64,000 nt of DNA from an uncultured Erysipelotrichaceae bacterium (GTDB lineage: Bacteria; Bacillota_I; Bacilli_A; RF39; UBA660). The first letter of the stretch is position 1; each line of letters opens with the position of its first letter. Of the stretch, positions 2,409-43,968 are shown piece by piece. The notes beneath the pieces are model-generated. The model was given only the letters and a program-made list of their open reading frames with translations, was not told the origin of the DNA and ran no database searches. A program made the position numbers and the translations under genes. The DNA is taken from contig CACXGO010000029.1 in NCBI GenBank assembly GCA_902767245.1, positions 31,598 to 95,597 on the forward strand, in the 5' to 3' direction.

Positions 2409-2485
2409 TGGTAACCCGTATGGGTTTTGAACCCATGAATACCACCTTGAGAGGGTGGCGTGTTAAACCACTTCACCAACGGGTC
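2409..2485 (-). tRNA. tRNA-Glu, anticodon CUC (77 nt, CCA encoded)
   Basis: Reverse complement folds as a cloverleaf: acceptor GACCCGT/ACGGGTT, anticodon stem CCACC/GGTGG, loop CUCUCAA, T-arm ATGGG-TTCAAAA-CCCAT, discriminator A, 3' CCA. The track ORF 2408..2698 (+) is an artefact over this tRNA. Confidence 0.75.
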
Positions 2486-2526: not shown

Positions 2527-4164
2527 TTATTTATTACTTTCTTCAAAAAAATTAATTCTTTTTATGATTCTTTCTTTACCTAAATTTTTTAGAATTTCAT
2601 ATAAATCTGGTGTCATTGTTAAACTTGTTACAGCTACTCTAATTGCTTCACAAATGTCTCCAATTGAACCAACGTATTTTTCTGGTTCTTGTTTATAAGC
2701 TTTTGTTTCAGCGGCATAACCATATTTTGGTGCAAGTTCTTTTATTTTATTAAACCATTCTTCTTTTGAGTCAGATTCATTATAATAATTATTTACATAA
2801 TCTTTTAAAAGTTCAATATTATATTTTTTTTCAAGATTAAATTTAGCTTCTTTAAAATATAGCTCATCAAACATATACCAAGTGAATTTTCTAACATCTT
2901 CATATGCTGAAATATCTCTTCTTGGGCGTGGTATTTCTCTTTCAATATTTAAAACATTAATCATATATTCTTTGTATTTTTTCAATAATTCATGAAATTC
3001 TAAATCGTATTTTTCTGTATATTCTAATACACCTTCATATAATTTGGAAGCTTTAAGTGCACTAAAATATACTTTAGAAATACTTATAAGTTTTTGAATA
3101 TCAAACAAAGTTCCACCAATTGGGCACTTATCAAATTCAAATTCAAAATCATTTATTCCTTTATCAGGATTTTGCAAATACCACGATTCAAAAGTTGAAT
3201 TATTTATAGTTGCAAGATAAAGATCAATAACTTCGGTTGGAATTCCCTTTTGATGATAGTAACTTACTGCAGCCCATGGATCTTTACGTTTTGATATTTT
3301 TCTAACAGTATTTCCTTCTTTTACTGTCAAAGGTGAAATATGGGCATATGCTGGCATTTCAAAACCCAAAACTTTAAACAATTGTTCATGAACATTCCAA
3401 GAAGAAACCCATTCATCACCACGAATTACATTAGTTGTATGCATCAAATGGTCATCAACTGCATGAGCAAAATGATATGTTGGTAAATTGTCAGATTTTA
3501 AAATAACAATGTCCATATCATTTTCAGGCATTTCAATATTACCTTTTATTAAATCATGTAAAACTACTTTATTATTAAAATTGCCTGGGGATTTAAGACG
3601 AATTATGTATTTTTCACCATTTTTAACTTTTTCAATTGCTTCTTCCATAGTTAATGAACGACATTTTGCCCATGTACCATAGTAACCAATTCTTGCTTTT
3701 TCAAGTTCCTGAATGTTTCTTGTTTCTTCTAATTCTTCAGGTGTACAAAAACATGGATATGCTTTATCTTCCTCTATTAATTTTCGAACATAAGCGCGAT
3801 AAATGTCACCTCTTTCACTTTGAACATAAGGGCCATAATTTCCTCCAAAAGAAGGTCCTTCATTAAAGTTGATACCCAAATTTTTAAAGTCGTTAACAAT
3901 TCCTTCAATTCCATTTTCAACTTCACGCTTTTGATCAGTATCTTCAATACGTAACATTGCAATTCCATTAGTTTGTCTTGCCATAACTAAATCTACAAAT
4001 GAAGCATATAAACTCCCCATATGAACAAAGCCTGTTGGACTTGGGGCAAATCTAGTTACCATTTCTCCTACTTTTAAATCTCTTTTTGGATATTTTTCTT
4101 CATAATAATTAACATCATGCTCTACATTTGGTACAAGTAATTCACTATATTCTTTTCTTGTCAT
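2527..4164 (-). CDS. gltX: Glutamyl-tRNA synthetase
   Basis: RFAPSPTGFVHMG HIGH-region, KISKRK KMSKS-region, and the CFCTPEELE motif typical of bacterial GluRS. Confidence 0.9.
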   Translation of the reverse strand: MTRKEYSELLVPNVEHDVNYYEEKYPKRDLKVGEMVTRFAPSPTGFVHMGSLYASFVDLVMARQTNGIAMLRIEDTDQKREVENGIEGIVNDFKNLGINFNEGPSFGGNYGPYVQSERGDIYRAYVRKLIEEDKAYPCFCTPEELEETRNIQELEKARIGYYGTWAKCRSLTMEEAIEKVKNGEKYIIRLKSPGNFNNKVVLHDLIKGNIEMPENDMDIVILKSDNLPTYHFAHAVDDHLMHTTNVIRGDEWVSSWNVHEQLFKVLGFEMPAYAHISPLTVKEGNTVRKISKRKDPWAAVSYYHQKGIPTEVIDLYLATINNSTFESWYLQNPDKGINDFEFEFDKCPIGGTLFDIQKLISISKVYFSALKASKLYEGVLEYTEKYDLEFHELLKKYKEYMINVLNIEREIPRPRRDISAYEDVRKFTWYMFDELYFKEAKFNLEKKYNIELLKDYVNNYYNESDSKEEWFNKIKELAPKYGYAAETKAYKQEPEKYVGSIGDICEAIRVAVTSLTMTPDLYEILKNLGKERIIKRINFFEESNK

Positions 4165-4165
4165 A

Positions 4166-4335
4166 AAATCATTCCTTTCTAAAATAAAAAAACTCTATCC
4201 TGTTTAAGGACGAGTTTTCCCGTGGTACCACCTTATTTTATAGTATTGCTACTACCTTAATATCGTTAACGCCGATAAACAATAAGCTCTAAAGTTTCTT
4301 CAAAATGACTATTTATTAATTTCCATCAAACATTA
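4166..4335 (-). promoter_or_regulatory. T-box riboswitch leader of gltX, with terminator/antiterminator
   Basis: Reverse strand contains AAGGTGGTACCACGGG (T-box consensus AGGGTGGNACCGCG; its UGGU is complementary to the ACCA end of the adjacent tRNA-Glu). A hairpin CTCGTCCTTAAACAGGATAGAG plus U-tract follows immediately before the gltX RBS. Confidence 0.55.
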
Positions 4336-4379
4336 ACTTTCTATAAAATAGTTTAATTTTTACTCTTCTTTTTCACTGC

Positions 4380-4823
4380 TTATAAATTTTCTAAATTTTT
4401 CTTTATAATTGAGTTTACTAAACTCATATCTGCTTTTCCTTTTACTAAAGGTGCAATTTCTCTCATTATCTTGCCAATATCACTAGGTCCAGTTGGATTT
4501 ACCTTTGCAAAAACTTCTTTAACAAGTTTTTCAATTTCGGTTTCTTCCATCATTTTTGGCATATATACATTTAATACTTCAATTTCCTTATTATTTTGTT
4601 CTACTAAATCAGTTCTGCCTGCTTTTTCAAATTCAACATTTGCTTCTTTTCTTGTTTTAATTTGTTTAGACAAAATAGAAACTAATTCAGCATCTTCTAA
4701 ACTTCTTCCTTTTGCTATTTCATCCATTTGAATAGCGGCTTTAACCATTCTAATTACGGCCAACTTTGTCTTATCTTGACTTTTCATTGCCGCTTTTAAA
4801 TCTTCCATTAATCTTTCTTTCAT
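4380..4823 (-). CDS. yqeY: GatB/YqeY domain protein
   Basis: 147 aa, typical YqeY-like sequence and the usual position upstream of rpsU. Confidence 0.8.
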   Translation of the reverse strand: MKERLMEDLKAAMKSQDKTKLAVIRMVKAAIQMDEIAKGRSLEDAELVSILSKQIKTRKEANVEFEKAGRTDLVEQNNKEIEVLNVYMPKMMEETEIEKLVKEVFAKVNPTGPSDIGKIMREIAPLVKGKADMSLVNSIIKKNLENL

Positions 4824-6978: not shown

Positions 6979-7037
6979 ACTACACTCTCCTTTTAATAAT
7001 TTTATTTTATCACAATTTTATAAAATAAAGCAATCAT

Positions 7038-7062
7038 AAAAGGAGATAAAAATCTCCTTTCG
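7038..7062 (-). terminator. Terminator at the end of the bacteriocin operon
   Basis: AAAGGAGAT-tttt-ATCTCCTTT hairpin immediately after the stop of peptide 2. Confidence 0.45.
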
Positions 7063-7227
7063 TTATCTAATAATACAACTTTTATTAGATGTTAATCTTC
7101 TTATTGCAGAACCACAAGCACGGCCAATATCCAAAATTGAATTAATGACTCTAGTAATAGCAGACATTAAAGTCCCAGAAATAGATCCAGCTACTACTTT
7201 TTTACATTCTTCATTTGATAAAATCAT
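7063..7227 (-). CDS. Class II bacteriocin-like prepeptide 2 (54 aa); double-glycine-type leader ending AG; not in the supplied ORF track
   Basis: Hand translation gives MILSNEECKKVVAG|SISGTLMSAITRVINSILDIGRACGSAIRRLTSNKSCIIR. The leader has hydrophobics at -4, -7, -12 and E at -8, matching double-glycine leaders. The ATG overlaps the TGA of peptide 1 (ATGA), implying translational coupling. Mature part is cationic and amphipathic with 2 Cys. Confidence 0.5.
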   Translation of the reverse strand: MILSNEECKKVVAGSISGTLMSAITRVINSILDIGRACGSAIRRLTSNKSCIIR

Positions 7228-7367
7228 TGACGACACTTTGATGGATTAGTATATCCATCTATAACTCCTACAAAAAATGTGATAATGCCGCCAATAAGTC
7301 CTACAATTCCCCAGTGAATTGCTCCTGCTTTCATACTTTTTAATTCACTAGTTTTGATTTCCTTCAT
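7224..7367 (-). CDS. Class II bacteriocin-like prepeptide 1 (47 aa from the internal ATG; track ORF starts 14 codons upstream)
   Basis: MKEIKTSELKSMKAG|AIHWGIVGLIGGIITFFVGVIDGYTNPSKCRQ. The leader fits the double-glycine consensus (M-15, I-12, E-8, L-7, M-4, AG). An AAGGAG RBS lies 8 nt upstream. The mature peptide is GxxxG-rich and hydrophobic, as in class IIb peptides. Confidence 0.55.
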   Translation of the reverse strand: MKEIKTSELKSMKAGAIHWGIVGLIGGIITFFVGVIDGYTNPSKCRQ

Positions 7368-7756
7368 TAAATCACTCCTTTCATATATTTTTGATATAAA
7401 TAATCCCATATATTAGTTTCTTTACCCAGCCCAATATGTAATTCCAAAATATATTTTGATTTATCATAATCAAAATTTATCTTAACATTCCTTTTTAAAG
7501 TATTTTCGTGCAAAATATAATTACTTGAAACTTCTACTATCTTATAATCTTGAATGCTTTTGTCATATTTTAATTTATAGTTTAAATTAGTTATTTCTTG
7601 ATCAGTTAAAAAAATATTAACATAGCTTTCATTTACTTCTCCATATATTAACTTATATGGTTGATATGAGAAAAAAAATAAAGATAATAAAACAAGAAAT
7701 AAAATAATAAATGCTATTAAAAACAAATTGGTGACTCTATTTTCAATATAAGACAT
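7367..7756 (-). CDS. Small membrane-anchored protein in the bacteriocin operon (putative accessory or immunity protein)
   Basis: 129 aa with one N-terminal TM helix and a soluble domain. Its stop overlaps the peptide 1 start and its start overlaps the ABC transporter end. Confidence 0.4.
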   Translation of the reverse strand: MSYIENRVTNLFLIAFIILFLVLLSLFFFSYQPYKLIYGEVNESYVNIFLTDQEITNLNYKLKYDKSIQDYKIVEVSSNYILHENTLKRNVKINFDYDKSKYILELHIGLGKETNIWDYLYQKYMKGVI

Positions 7757-9794
7757 CTTCTTTTATCTCTCCTTTTTCTAATTTTACAAAATGATCAAAT
7801 AAATCTATATTGTTTAATCGATGAGAAATGACTATTATTGTTTTTTCTTTATATTTGCCAAAAATATTTTTTAAAATTTTTCTTTCTAAAGATATATCTA
7901 ATTGATTTGTTCCTTCATCAATTAAAATTATTTTACTATTAGTCAAAATAGTTCTGGCCAAAATTATTCTTTGTCTTTCACCACCACTTAGATTAAAACC
8001 ATTTTCTTCAATCAAAGTATTTAAACCTAAATCATTTTTTGCTATTTTATTGACACTACATAATAGTGAAGCTTCAATAATTTTATTAGGATTAATGTTA
8101 CGATATAAATCTATATTTTCATAAATTGTATCTGTAAATAACATCTCATTTTGAGCAAGATAAGAAACACATGAAATTGCTTTATTACTGTAATCGTTGA
8201 TATCAATACCATTTATAAAAACCATCTCATTTTTCACTTTTAAATATTTTTTTAATATTTTTAAAAGTGTTGATTTGCCAGAACCACTTTCACCTACCAA
8301 TAAAACTTTTTCACCTTCATTAATAGTTAAATAAATATGCTTTAATATTTCTTCATCACCATAACTATAATTAAGATCTTTAATGAGAATATCAGACTTT
8401 TTAATTTTTTCTATTTTTCCTGAATTTTCTATTTTATAATCAAGTTCCAAAGCTCTTTTTAAGGTATTAATACTTTCCTCGAGTTCACTACTACTATCTA
8501 AAATATTTTTAATTGGATTCATAAAATTAGAATATAAAAAAGTAAATGTAATTAATGCCCCAATGATTAAAGTACCACTTTCTATTTCTAAAATGCCAAG
8601 GAAAATAATTACTAATATTGATATTTCACTGATTAAATCTTTAAAAAAGGTTTCCCAATTAATGCTTTTTGCATATTTTAAAATACTATCAACAAAACCA
8701 TAATAAAGTTGTTTATATTTTTTTATGATTTCATTTTCGATTTTTAAGCCTTTTACACATTCATAAGAACTTATTGATTCAACTAAAAAGGAAGTATTTT
8801 TTTCTCTTAACCTTTGATATTCCTTAATTTTATATTTAAATTTTCCTCTAAAAAAAGCAACTATTATTACATATAAAGTTAAGAATAATAAAGTATATGT
8901 TGTTAATTTAAAACTCAAATTAAACATAACAATTAAAGATAGTATAATTAAAGGAATATTTGAAAATAAAATAATTATAATTTTACTTATAAATGTTTTT
9001 ATTAGTTCTAAATCAGTAATTCTTGAAATAATTTCACCCGTTGTTCGATTACAATAATAAATATAAGGGAAATGAATTATTTTGGCATAAAATTCATTTG
9101 TTAATTCATATGACACTTTCTTATTTAAATAAATGCTCAAAAGATTGCTTAAGTAAGTACTAATCACCTTAAATATTGCTAATGATATAAATATAATTAA
9201 AAATATATATTTTAATCGATAATCATAAGAAATACTTGAAATAAAGGTATTAAATGAAAAAGACAAAATAATAATAAGAATATTTGTAAAAAATGAAATT
9301 AAAGATATTTTAATAATTGAGGTTTTATTTATTTTAAGAAAGTTGGTAATGAAATTTAGAATTGAATAATTCTTAAGATAAGGAATTTTTTTATTTTGAT
9401 AAAATAATATATAAACATTATTTGATATTTTATTAAAGTCTTCAAATTTCATCTTTTTTATTCCGTTAGCAGGATCAGCAATCAAAATTGTCTCTTTTTT
9501 TAAATTAATTTCATAAATTACCACAAAATGATTGAATTTTTTATCAATTGTTACATAAGCAATACATGGCAATTTTAAATTAGAAATATCATCAGTTTTT
9601 ATGGCTTTTGTTTGAAAGCCAATATATTCTGCGACTTTTATAATACTAAATGCTGAAGTCCCTTCTTTATTTGTTTCAAGCATATCTCTTAATTGTTCTT
9701 GTGATATATAACCTTTATAATATCTAATTATCATTGAAAGCGTTGCAACTGCACAATCTTTTACTCCCTCTTGTTTTACAAATGGATATTTCAT
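7743..9794 (-). CDS. Bacteriocin-processing ABC transporter with N-terminal C39 peptidase domain (ComA/LagD/SunT family)
   Basis: N-terminal DCAVATLSMIIRYYKG (C39 catalytic Cys) and NHFVVIY (His). Six TM helices. Walker A GESGSGKST, ABC signature LSGGERQR, Walker B ILIDEGT. Confidence 0.85.
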   Translation of the reverse strand: MKYPFVKQEGVKDCAVATLSMIIRYYKGYISQEQLRDMLETNKEGTSAFSIIKVAEYIGFQTKAIKTDDISNLKLPCIAYVTIDKKFNHFVVIYEINLKKETILIADPANGIKKMKFEDFNKISNNVYILFYQNKKIPYLKNYSILNFITNFLKINKTSIIKISLISFFTNILIIILSFSFNTFISSISYDYRLKYIFLIIFISLAIFKVISTYLSNLLSIYLNKKVSYELTNEFYAKIIHFPYIYYCNRTTGEIISRITDLELIKTFISKIIIILFSNIPLIILSLIVMFNLSFKLTTYTLLFLTLYVIIVAFFRGKFKYKIKEYQRLREKNTSFLVESISSYECVKGLKIENEIIKKYKQLYYGFVDSILKYAKSINWETFFKDLISEISILVIIFLGILEIESGTLIIGALITFTFLYSNFMNPIKNILDSSSELEESINTLKRALELDYKIENSGKIEKIKKSDILIKDLNYSYGDEEILKHIYLTINEGEKVLLVGESGSGKSTLLKILKKYLKVKNEMVFINGIDINDYSNKAISCVSYLAQNEMLFTDTIYENIDLYRNINPNKIIEASLLCSVNKIAKNDLGLNTLIEENGFNLSGGERQRIILARTILTNSKIILIDEGTNQLDISLERKILKNIFGKYKEKTIIVISHRLNNIDLFDHFVKLEKGEIKEDVLY

Positions 9795-9876
9795 TCTTTC
9801 ATCTCCCTTACTATAAACATACCCGGTCGATTTAAAATATCCTTTTTTATTTAAAAAAAACTTTATAGTTTTTTCG

Positions 9877-10416
9877 CTATAAAGTTTTTCTAAATATTTT
9901 TATATATTTATCTCCATATTTTTTTTCTTTTATTAATTCATAATTGCATAAAGGAATTTCTTCTTCATATTCTGCAATTAATAGACCATTTTTATTTAAA
10001 ATATCTAAATTTTCAATCTCTTTAATTGCTTTATTTAATATTTTTTCATGATACGGGGGATCAAGAAAAATAATATCAACATTTTTAAATGTTTTTAAAG
10101 CATTTAAATAATCACTATTAATGAATAGAGATTCTTCTTCAACTTTTATTTCATTGCATGCTTTTTTTATCTCATCTATACATTTTTTGTTCTTATCAAC
10201 AAATATTGCTTTTTTAGCTCCATTACTTAAGGCTTCAAGTCCTAAAGAACCTGTTCCAGCAAATAAGTCTAATACTATGCTATCCTTTAAATAAGGATTT
10301 ATTGTTGCAAATAAAGATTCTCTAACCCTATCCATTGTTGGTCTAGTACCTTCAATATTAAAACCTTTTATAATTCTTCCTTTATATTTACCACTTATTA
10401 TTTTCAAAATTATCAC
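9877..10416 (-). CDS. rsmD: 16S rRNA (guanine966-N2)-methyltransferase RsmD (YlbH)
   Basis: LDLFAGTGSLGLEAL SAM-binding motif and the DPPY motif. Confidence 0.85.
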   Translation of the reverse strand: MIILKIISGKYKGRIIKGFNIEGTRPTMDRVRESLFATINPYLKDSIVLDLFAGTGSLGLEALSNGAKKAIFVDKNKKCIDEIKKACNEIKVEEESLFINSDYLNALKTFKNVDIIFLDPPYHEKILNKAIKEIENLDILNKNGLLIAEYEEEIPLCNYELIKEKKYGDKYIKIFRKTL

Positions 10417-43894: not shown

Positions 43895-43968
43895 AGGGGT
43901 ATAGTTTAATGGTAGAGCGGCGGTCTCCAAAACCGTTAATGTGGGTTCAACTCCTGCTACCCCTGCCA
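43895..43968 (+). tRNA. tRNA-Trp (anticodon CCA), CCA encoded
   Basis: AGGGGTATAGTTTAATGGTAGAGCGGCGGTCTCCAAAACCG...GGTTCAACTCC...TACCCCTGCCA, near-identical in architecture to Bacillus tRNA-Trp; anticodon loop CUCCAAA. Confidence 0.8.

Follow-up and report, generated by a model that had tools for sequence, protein, structure and literature searches.

The window analysed here is a stretch of 64,000 nucleotides (nt) of the contig CACXGO010000029.1 (GenBank assembly GCA_902767245.1), which derives from an uncultured Erysipelotrichaceae bacterium. On its minus strand, between positions 7063 and 9794, lie four consecutive genes that encode, from 5' to 3', an ATP-binding cassette (ABC) exporter with a C39 peptidase domain, a small protein that we call X, and two short peptides with double-glycine-type leaders, pep1 and pep2 (Table 1). 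These genes, together with the two-peptide, class IIb-type bacteriocin-like product that they may specify, are the subject of this study. The coordinates and both peptide sequences are as given in a preliminary description made from the DNA letters, which had also remarked that pep2 is missing from the track of open reading frames (ORFs); this is true but trivial, because the longest ORF at that place, starting at a GTG at 7236, has 57 amino acids (aa) and the ORF lister a default of 60 aa.

The four genes are translationally coupled and have a hairpin on either side. The exporter gene overlaps X by 14 nt; the TAA stop codon of X shares one base with the ATG of pep1 at 7367 (TAATG), seven bases before which sits the Shine-Dalgarno sequence AAAGGAG; and the TGA of pep1 overlaps the ATG of pep2 (ATGA, 7224-7227), which makes translational coupling of the two peptides possible, pep2 having no Shine-Dalgarno sequence of its own in the window. 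That ORFs stay long and unbroken when read with translation table 11 shows TGA to be a stop codon here. The hairpin directly 3' of pep2 is followed by UUUUAU, and none of the shuffled sequences folded equally well in RNA folding. The one at the end of rsmD has a counterpart in relatives and is likely an intrinsic terminator that splits the cassette from rsmD. With one hairpin after rsmD and another after pep2, the cassette constitutes a separate transcription unit.

The region upstream of the exporter gene, to which the preliminary description had pointed as a place for a conserved promoter or regulator site, does contain invariant blocks. In an alignment of the window with three related loci (L001, L003 and L010), these run, in order and at constant spacing, as AAAAAGGATAT (about 9837-9847), N14 and GTAT (9819-9822), with a -10-like hexamer TATAGT at 9810-9815 and the Shine-Dalgarno sequence AAGGGAG at 9803-9809, and they are a possible promoter or regulator site. 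A scan for consensus promoters returned no site between 9795 and 9851, and a sporulation sigma factor, considered for the conserved motif, was dropped for its poor fit to consensus sequences. Rfam detected no RNA element in the cassette. The G+C content is 19-22% across the exporter gene (7500-9500) versus 25-30% in the flanking genes, and the GC skew disappears around 8500-9500. A foreign origin of the gene was considered for its low G+C content and rejected in view of its conserved synteny and membrane-protein composition; the drop is likely due to the composition of the membrane domain, not to recent acquisition.

Table 1. Features of the cassette in the window (position 1 is the first letter of the window) and, in the last row, examples of a further ORF in related loci (locus coordinates). 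dG, folding free energy; TM, transmembrane.
Feature	Position	Strand	Basis or properties
ABC exporter, 683 aa	7743..9794	-	ORF and domain matches
Protein X, 129 aa	7367..7756	-	ORF, same position in most relatives
pep1 precursor, 47 aa	7224..7367	-	ORF, alignments, dN/dS
pep1 leader, MKEIKTSELKSMKAG	codons 7323-7367	-	alignments with relatives
pep1 mature part, 32 aa, AIHWGIVGLIGGIITFFVGVIDGYTNPSKCRQ	within 7224..7367	-	hydrophobic, net charge +1
pep2 precursor, 54 aa	7063..7227	-	ORF, alignments, dN/dS
pep2 leader, MILSNEECKKVVAG	codons 7186-7227	-	alignments with relatives
pep2 mature part, 40 aa, SISGTLMSAITRVINSILDIGRACGSAIRRLTSNKSCIIR	within 7063..7227	-	net charge +5, amphipathic helix
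Intrinsic-terminator-like hairpin, cassette end	7034..7061	-	10-bp stem, dG -12.1 kcal/mol, z -4.7
Hairpin and U8, rsmD end	9852..9885	-	9-bp stem, dG -7.1 kcal/mol, z -3.0, then UUUUUUUU
Putative upstream control region	9795..9851	-	blocks invariant in alignment with L001, L003 and L010
pep3, examples in relatives	L007:449-616, L078:3006-3173, L081:7147-7311, L092:6150-6311		about 25 further loci

Leaders, mature parts and pairing of pep1 and pep2

Both leaders were described from the outset as following the double-glycine consensus while ending in Ala-Gly (AG), and the residues at the relevant positions agree with that consensus (L-12 xxx E-8 L-7 xx hydrophobic-4 x G-2 G-1): I-12, E-8, L-7, M-4, A-2 and G-1 in pep1, and L-12, E-8, C-7, V-4, A-2 and G-1 in pep2. 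The description of the mature parts as a glycine-rich TM-like helix and a cationic amphipathic one stands as well, each with an invariant GxxxG. The core of pep1 is TM-like, with a mean hydrophobicity of 0.83-0.93 in 18-residue windows, and carries a GVIDG motif and a single Cys at -3 from the C-terminus, with G15, G38, P42 and C45 invariant in the alignment of relatives. In pep2, the invariant positions are G35xxxG39 (GRACG in the window) and Cys51. An AlphaFold2 model of the pep2 precursor, built on an alignment of 104 sequences, has a mean predicted local distance difference test (pLDDT) score of 78 and shows a leader helix at residues 5-10, coil at the cleavage site and a second helix at 18-47, whose hydrophobic moment of up to 0.68 was reached by 37 of 2000 shuffles.

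When the window is compared with four related loci (L001, L003, L009 and L010), the ratio of nonsynonymous to synonymous substitution rates (dN/dS) is 0.07-0.28 for pep1 and 0.09-0.25 for pep2, at near-saturated dS values of about 0.8 to above 2; the same comparison gives 0.16-0.22 for the exporter gene and 0.11-0.27 for X. Both peptide genes are under purifying selection, as strong as that on the exporter gene. Both peptides are, in addition, called in public assemblies, the 54 aa pep2 product in those of NCBI, ENA and Logan, and the translation of the frame at 7063-7227, on which the preliminary description had hinged, is borne out by its conservation in relatives and by homologues that number in the hundreds. 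This confirms pep1 and pep2 as real genes.

Word-based searches yielded 8 close relatives of pep1 and 6 of pep2, whereas a profile search of 1.84 billion cluster representatives collected 317 relatives of pep2 at E<=1e-3, nearly all of 50-57 aa and each standing for a cluster at 50% identity; a second pep2 profile search gave 255. Eighty metagenome loci were fetched via a pep2 motif, to which loci from exact-protein look-ups were added, and as every locus was found via pep2, the count covers carriers of the cassette only. A scan of the GTDB representative genomes returned a single locus. Nearly every sufficiently long locus shows the same order, with the C39-ABC gene, an ORF of about 123-154 aa (sometimes absent), pep1 and pep2, and within loci of this conserved order the identity of the exporter to that of the window drops to 30-43%. 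In nearly all fetched loci pep1 lies directly upstream of pep2, and the pair, kept in about 76 loci, is always accompanied by the exporter.

Across the 58 distinct pairs that we compared, the consensus of pep1 is a leader ending in GG, a glycine-rich hydrophobic helix and G(V/L)(I/V)DG(Y/F)xRPxKC(N/R), and that of pep2 a leader ending in GG and xISGTLIxxxxRGxNxxLDxGRSLGSAIRRxxxxxxC(P)x. Mature parts measure 29-35 aa in pep1 and 37-42 aa in pep2, the net charge of the latter being mostly +2 to +5. The motif GxxDG is present in 57 of the pep1 and GxxxG[STGN] in all 58 of the pep2 sequences. Exactly one mature Cys occurs in 57 pep1 sequences, 1-4 residues from the C-terminus, and in 54 pep2 sequences, 0-3 residues from it; the four pep2 sequences with two Cys residues are those of the window's clade (GRACGS). 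Positions -2/-1 are occupied by GG in 50 and AG in 8 of the pep1 leaders, and by GG in 49, AG in 8 and AR in one of the pep2 leaders. The AG of the window falls in the same alignment column as the GG of its relatives, which supports cleavage after AG, and its independent appearance in either peptide marks it as a tolerated variant of the cleavage site.

Two oddities were found among the relatives. The single Ala-Arg is that of L009 (432-596; ...KIKAR/SITG...), where it should block cleavage and may be a sequencing error or the mark of an inactivated copy. In L007 (141-301) and L008 (55-215), the pep1 homologue is out of frame with the Shine-Dalgarno-proximal ATG at a run of eight A's; the loss of one A would restore MTYKKINKEELKEINGG..., and the public gene call reads through a TGA there. 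This frame break could mean that the gene is a pseudogene or is expressed by slippage, or it could be an assembly artefact common to both loci.

At the level of curated families, 22 of 33 pep1 relatives match TIGR03949 (class IIb bacteriocin, lactobin A/cerein 7B family) at E<=0.01, and, of ten inspected in detail, six score at or above its cut-off of 21.5 bits (L075 with 29.7, L020 with 27.2, L039 with 24.6, L035 with 23.6, L025 with 22.8 and L011 with 21.6 bits). The alignments run 15-24 residues into mature pep1. L001, a close relative of the window, scores 21.4 bits, while pep1 of the window itself has no match to this model at E<=1. Relatives of pep2 show sub-threshold matches only (TIGR03949, TIGR01847, PF10439 and a few ComC), all of them driven by the leader, which leaves the mature pep2 family without a curated model. 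Profile searches of the PDB with pep2, pep1 and X returned, besides noise, only the CtA leader peptide (E 0.25-0.98). The relatives bear the name 'hypothetical protein' in their sources, except for one pep2 relative called 'bacteriocin' in the NCBI annotation of a metagenome-assembled genome, and we found no published description of the pep1/pep2 family in the literature.

The exporter, protein X and the third small ORF

That the first gene encodes a C39-peptidase ABC exporter, as initially described, is confirmed by its Pfam domains (PF03412, Peptidase_C39, 3.7e-33; PF00664, ABC_membrane, 2.6e-30; PF00005, ABC_tran, 5.4e-25), which correspond to a C39 peptidase domain, a six-TM ABC membrane domain and an ATPase domain, and by full-length alignments to ComA (PDB 8hf4, E 1.3e-84), its closest solved relative, and PCAT1 (PDB 4ry2, E 2.2e-79). 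Cys14, the His of NHFVV and the Asp of IADP align with Cys17, His96 and Asp112 of ComA, which we take to be its catalytic triad, and Walker A, the LSGG signature and Walker B are all present. Judged by its sequence, the protein is a complete peptidase-containing ABC transporter with intact C39 domain and ATPase motifs. Though its domain architecture is complete, it falls under every curated NCBIfam cut-off, scoring 344 bits on TIGR01193 (cut-off 523.85; relatives 216-418) and 251 bits on the Mycoplasma-specific NF045998 (cut-off 500). The latter model gives 240-343 bits across the ABC genes of the family, all below its cut-off, and is the top match for L051.

In protein X, a TM helix at the N-terminus precedes an extracytoplasmic domain of about 95 aa. 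Most relatives have an ORF of 123-154 aa at this position, so that position and architecture are conserved in the X family, and sequence weakly. A single-sequence AlphaFold2 model (pLDDT 68) places a helix at residues 3-30, followed by an alpha/beta domain, for which neither Foldseek nor the PDB profile search returned a significant match. X of the window matches no Pfam or NCBIfam model, including NF045999 ('MAG1140 family protein'); 12 of 32 members of the X family, however, align end to end with this 126-position model at E<=1, all sub-threshold, the best with 20.6 bits against a cut-off of 35. NF045999 adjoins the Mycoplasmopsis peptidase-ABC model NF045998. X is most likely a small accessory protein that assists export; less probably, it may have a role in immunity.

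The preliminary description had seen no obvious separate immunity gene, and we likewise found no ORF between pep2 and the terminator of the window. In about half of the assessable loci, by contrast with the window and its close clade, a third ORF of roughly 36-56 aa, pep3, overlaps the end of pep2 and thereby sits at the usual position of class IIb immunity genes. This ORF lacks a GG leader; its product has a single TM helix and the motif G(N/R/T)xxG(T/S)xxR, and a Cys at the C-terminus is frequent. A hidden Markov model of pep3, run against all 64 kb, finds pep2 as its best match (E 6e-4) and no separate copy, so that pep3 looks like a leaderless relative of the C-terminal half of pep2. It may be an immunity peptide or a third component of the system, and no other immunity candidate was seen in relatives. 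Of the 38 assessable loci, 15 have both X and pep3, 9 have only X, 4 only pep3 and 10 neither one, with a few of the 'no X' calls being filter artefacts (L042, for example, has a 153 aa ORF there).

Chromosomal position and inheritance

In the window, the cassette stands between parC, ylbD, ylbE and rsmD on one side and rubrerythrin, ykuD, rpsU, yqeY and gltX on the other. Most long loci likewise have it downstream of ylbD-ylbE-rsmD and upstream of rpsU-yqeY, and in a few it lies beside ftsA-ftsZ or spoVA instead. Outside the close clade, the flanking proteins are only 44-78% identical to those of the window (RsmD 44-58%, YqeY 42-59%, S21 57-78%). The identities of the exporter and of pep2 track that of RsmD (rho about 0.76, p 0.01-0.02, n=9-10), a correlation that drops to rho 0.55 (p 0.16) once the two closest relatives are left out. 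The pep1/pep2 family is not phage-borne, as a scan of viral contigs returned no relatives. The data are most simply explained by vertical inheritance over a long time within an uncultured, AT-rich, spore-forming lineage of gut and rumen Bacilli. The earlier remark that the locus sits directly downstream of rsmD amid housekeeping genes was right as to position; on the present reading, the cassette is a vertically inherited fixture between rsmD and rpsU across deeply diverged uncultured Bacilli. Beside the cassette, in syntenic relatives and in four distant loci, there is no histidine kinase, response regulator, modification enzyme or CPBP-type immunity protein.

Two relatives carry phage DNA in pep1. 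In L018 (5279-7160), a prophage lies inside the gene. Its gene for a 560 aa large serine recombinase stops some 30 nt short of pep2, and the sequence is again homologous to that of the intact loci L016 and L017 from exactly the G-Y-V-R-P-L-K-C-N codons onward. In L076 (5480-7160), the same remnant of the gene (...LGLDGYTRPLACK) borders on a module of phage tail fibre, holin and LysM-endolysin. Phages appear to use the conserved GVIDGY codons of pep1 as an attachment site, reminiscent of the intervening elements in spore formers. Elsewhere, in L092 (6376-8297), the cassette is directly followed by genes for a 221 aa protein without a family, a 291 aa protein whose matches to thioredoxin and to PedC-like proteins are faint, and a rhodanese, and these neighbours may be relevant to the conserved Cys residues of the peptides.

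Ordinary features of the window include a T-box leader (4203-4385, minus strand) upstream of the glutamyl-tRNA synthetase gene (2527-4164), as well as tRNA genes at 2412-2485 (minus strand) and 43895-43965 (plus strand).

Interpretation and relation to known systems

We consider it probable, at roughly 60%, that the four genes form an operon whose product is a bacteriocin-like pair of peptides of class IIb type. There is good support for an architecture of two peptides that are exported and freed of their leaders, and we infer antimicrobial activity of pep1 and pep2 from what speaks in favour of this reading, namely the class IIb physicochemistry of the pair, its GxxxG motifs, the membership of pep1 relatives in TIGR03949 and the toxin-immunity-like third gene in many lineages. 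The family to which the pair belongs is large, so far uncharacterised and found in uncultured gut and rumen Bacilli.

In the mechanism that we propose, the C39 domain would bind the leader helix of each precursor via the hydrophobic residues at -4, -7 and -12 and the Glu at -8 and cut after Ala-Gly, and the transporter would export the mature peptides, most likely with the help of X. On the outside, pep1 (TM-like, 32 aa) and pep2 (cationic and amphipathic, 40 aa, with a helix of about 30 residues) would pack via their invariant GxxxG motifs, and the heterodimer, once inserted, would permeabilise the membrane of sensitive cells. The presence of a single conserved C-terminal Cys in each peptide suggests, speculatively, that an intermolecular disulfide may fix the pair.

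Several observations weigh against the antimicrobial reading. The position of the cassette is fixed across deeply diverged hosts and its divergence keeps step with that of its flanks, and antagonistic toxins do not usually combine such a fixed position with selection that is purifying and not diversifying. No regulator genes lie near the cassette, a dedicated immunity gene was not found in the operon of the window, and X and pep3 are both dispensable, as the 10 of 38 loci with neither demonstrate. X and 31 relatives match no HlyD or TIGR01000 model and show no similarity to LcnD, ComB or HlyD. The window's pep1 and pep2 have no Pfam or NCBIfam match at E<=1 beyond noise, and the typical endings of double-glycine leaders are GG, GA and GS, AG not being among them (PMC6363468).

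In an alternative reading, the exported pair is real yet no weapon, and belongs to a conserved, vertically inherited module whose peptides act upon the envelope or the population of the producer itself, perhaps as a small membrane component made up of both or in a role tied to development or sporulation; homologues of the exporter and X would then persist in Mycoplasma as 'orphan' peptidase-ABC transporters. To this alternative, which we regard as unlikely but as the most serious one, belong the constancy of the site between ylbD-ylbE-rsmD and rpsU-yqeY in most long loci despite their diverged flanks, the way in which exporter and pep2 identities follow RsmD, selection on the peptides as strong as on the exporter gene, and the many lineages without an immunity candidate and lack of any with an adjacent regulator. 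The full-length weak matches of X to the Mycoplasmopsis MAG1140 family and the scores of the ABC genes on NF045998 also fit it, as do the Mycoplasma C39-ABC transporters, including JCVI-syn3A gene 0401, that have no known double-glycine substrate (PMC6609329), and the large-serine-recombinase prophages that insert inside pep1; Synechococcus biofilm proteins (PMC4997328) and pneumococcal GG peptides (PMC7595303) provide precedents for GG peptides that are not antibiotics. Set against this, no receptor, target or phenotype is known for such a role, the peptides have, in size (30-40 aa), character (cationic, amphipathic or hydrophobic) and GxxxG, the profile of pore-forming members of class IIb, the cut-off of a curated class IIb model is reached by relatives of pep1, the location of pep3 in about half of the lineages fits a toxin-immunity logic, and the Mycoplasma-family matches all remain under curated cut-offs. 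Somewhat more doubtful still is an elaborate form of this idea, in which the cassette would not primarily be a bacteriocin locus but an ancient vertically inherited export module of a deep lineage of uncultured Bacilli, whose pep1 and pep2, once exported, are linked by their conserved C-terminal Cys residues into a covalent heterodimer that acts in or on the membrane of the producer, whose exporter and X survive as remnants in Mycoplasma, and whose GVIDGY codons serve temperate phages with large serine recombinases as an attachment site.

The remaining explanations are far less probable. A role of the peptides as pheromones of the quorum-sensing or competence type, with a ComA-like transporter to export them, is improbable: ComA is the closest solved relative of the exporter, and a few relatives have weak matches to ComC or induction-factor models, but the ComC matches cover the leader only, the mature parts have a considerable length of 32 and 40 aa and are TM-like or amphipathic, and they are conserved, not diversified into pherotypes. 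The preliminary description had named a match to a competence-pheromone family as a finding that would speak against a bacteriocin, and none emerged, as the window peptides do not match the ComC-type models PF03047 or NF033214 and the syntenic relatives and four distant loci hold no histidine kinase or response regulator beside the cassette. Even less credible are precursors of modified peptides of the lanthipeptide, sactipeptide or glycocin type, in which the Cys residues would be modification sites; double-glycine leaders and a conserved Cys occur in both peptides, and one relative weakly matches a leader model for radical S-adenosylmethionine (rSAM)-modified, ribosomally synthesised and post-translationally modified peptides (RiPPs), yet a syntenic relative and four distant loci show housekeeping neighbours and no modification enzyme genes within about 10 kb, and one conserved Cys per peptide, with no Ser/Thr-Cys pattern, fits such chemistry poorly. 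Finally, the ORFs are short and pep2 has no Shine-Dalgarno sequence of its own, as might be expected of chance, untranslated ORFs in an AT-rich intergenic tail, but dN/dS values well below 1 at saturated dS, the 317 relatives with their conserved motifs, the conserved pairing at the side of the exporter and an ATGA overlap that permits translational coupling effectively refute this reading.

If the pair is antimicrobial, it represents a large, uncharacterised family of unmodified two-peptide bacteriocins of uncultured gut and rumen Bacilli, with 317 clusters and peptides short enough for synthesis, and the AG variant widens the known range of cleavage sites of double-glycine peptidases. If it is not, three traits speak for a double-glycine pair with a conserved role in physiology, namely its constant place between rsmD and rpsU, purifying selection and an immunity gene that is often missing; the cassette would then also offer a candidate type of substrate beside the orphan C39-ABC transporters of Mycoplasma. 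With its single conserved Cys per peptide, the family makes a disulfide-linked heterodimer a directly testable prediction.

Among solved systems, ComA and PCAT1 share the domain order and the aligned Cys, His and Asp residues of the exporter but differ in their substrates, ComA exporting a 17 aa pheromone and PCAT1 the CtA peptide. Accessory proteins of the LcnD/ComB/HlyD type are about 450 aa long and combine HlyD-family domains with a TM helix at the N-terminus, whereas X has only 129 aa; its location directly downstream of the ABC gene is rather like that in the Mycoplasmopsis pair Mbov_0121/MAG1140, whose profiles (NF045998, Mbov_0121 family, and NF045999) match the exporter and X families, with all scores sub-threshold. 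The preliminary description had spoken of a classic class IIb pair, and at the sequence level its features are there, whereas the locus, with its fixed position and no immunity gene, is not classic. Unlike in known class IIb systems, the leaders of the window end in AG and one C-terminal Cys is kept per peptide; an immunity gene after the peptides, an accessory protein of the LcnD/ComB type and a three-component regulatory unit are missing from the window; and the cassette is a syntenic, vertically inherited core feature instead of a variable island. It resembles them in its two adjacent, co-transcribed genes with a dedicated C39-ABC exporter, in double-glycine-type leaders of 14-15 aa, in the GxxxG conserved in both peptides, and in mature peptides of 30-40 aa of which one is hydrophobic and glycine-rich and the other cationic and amphipathic. 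On the sequence evidence, the class IIb reading holds, and the cassette represents a new, uncurated family of a known kind of system, with an unusual evolutionary stability.

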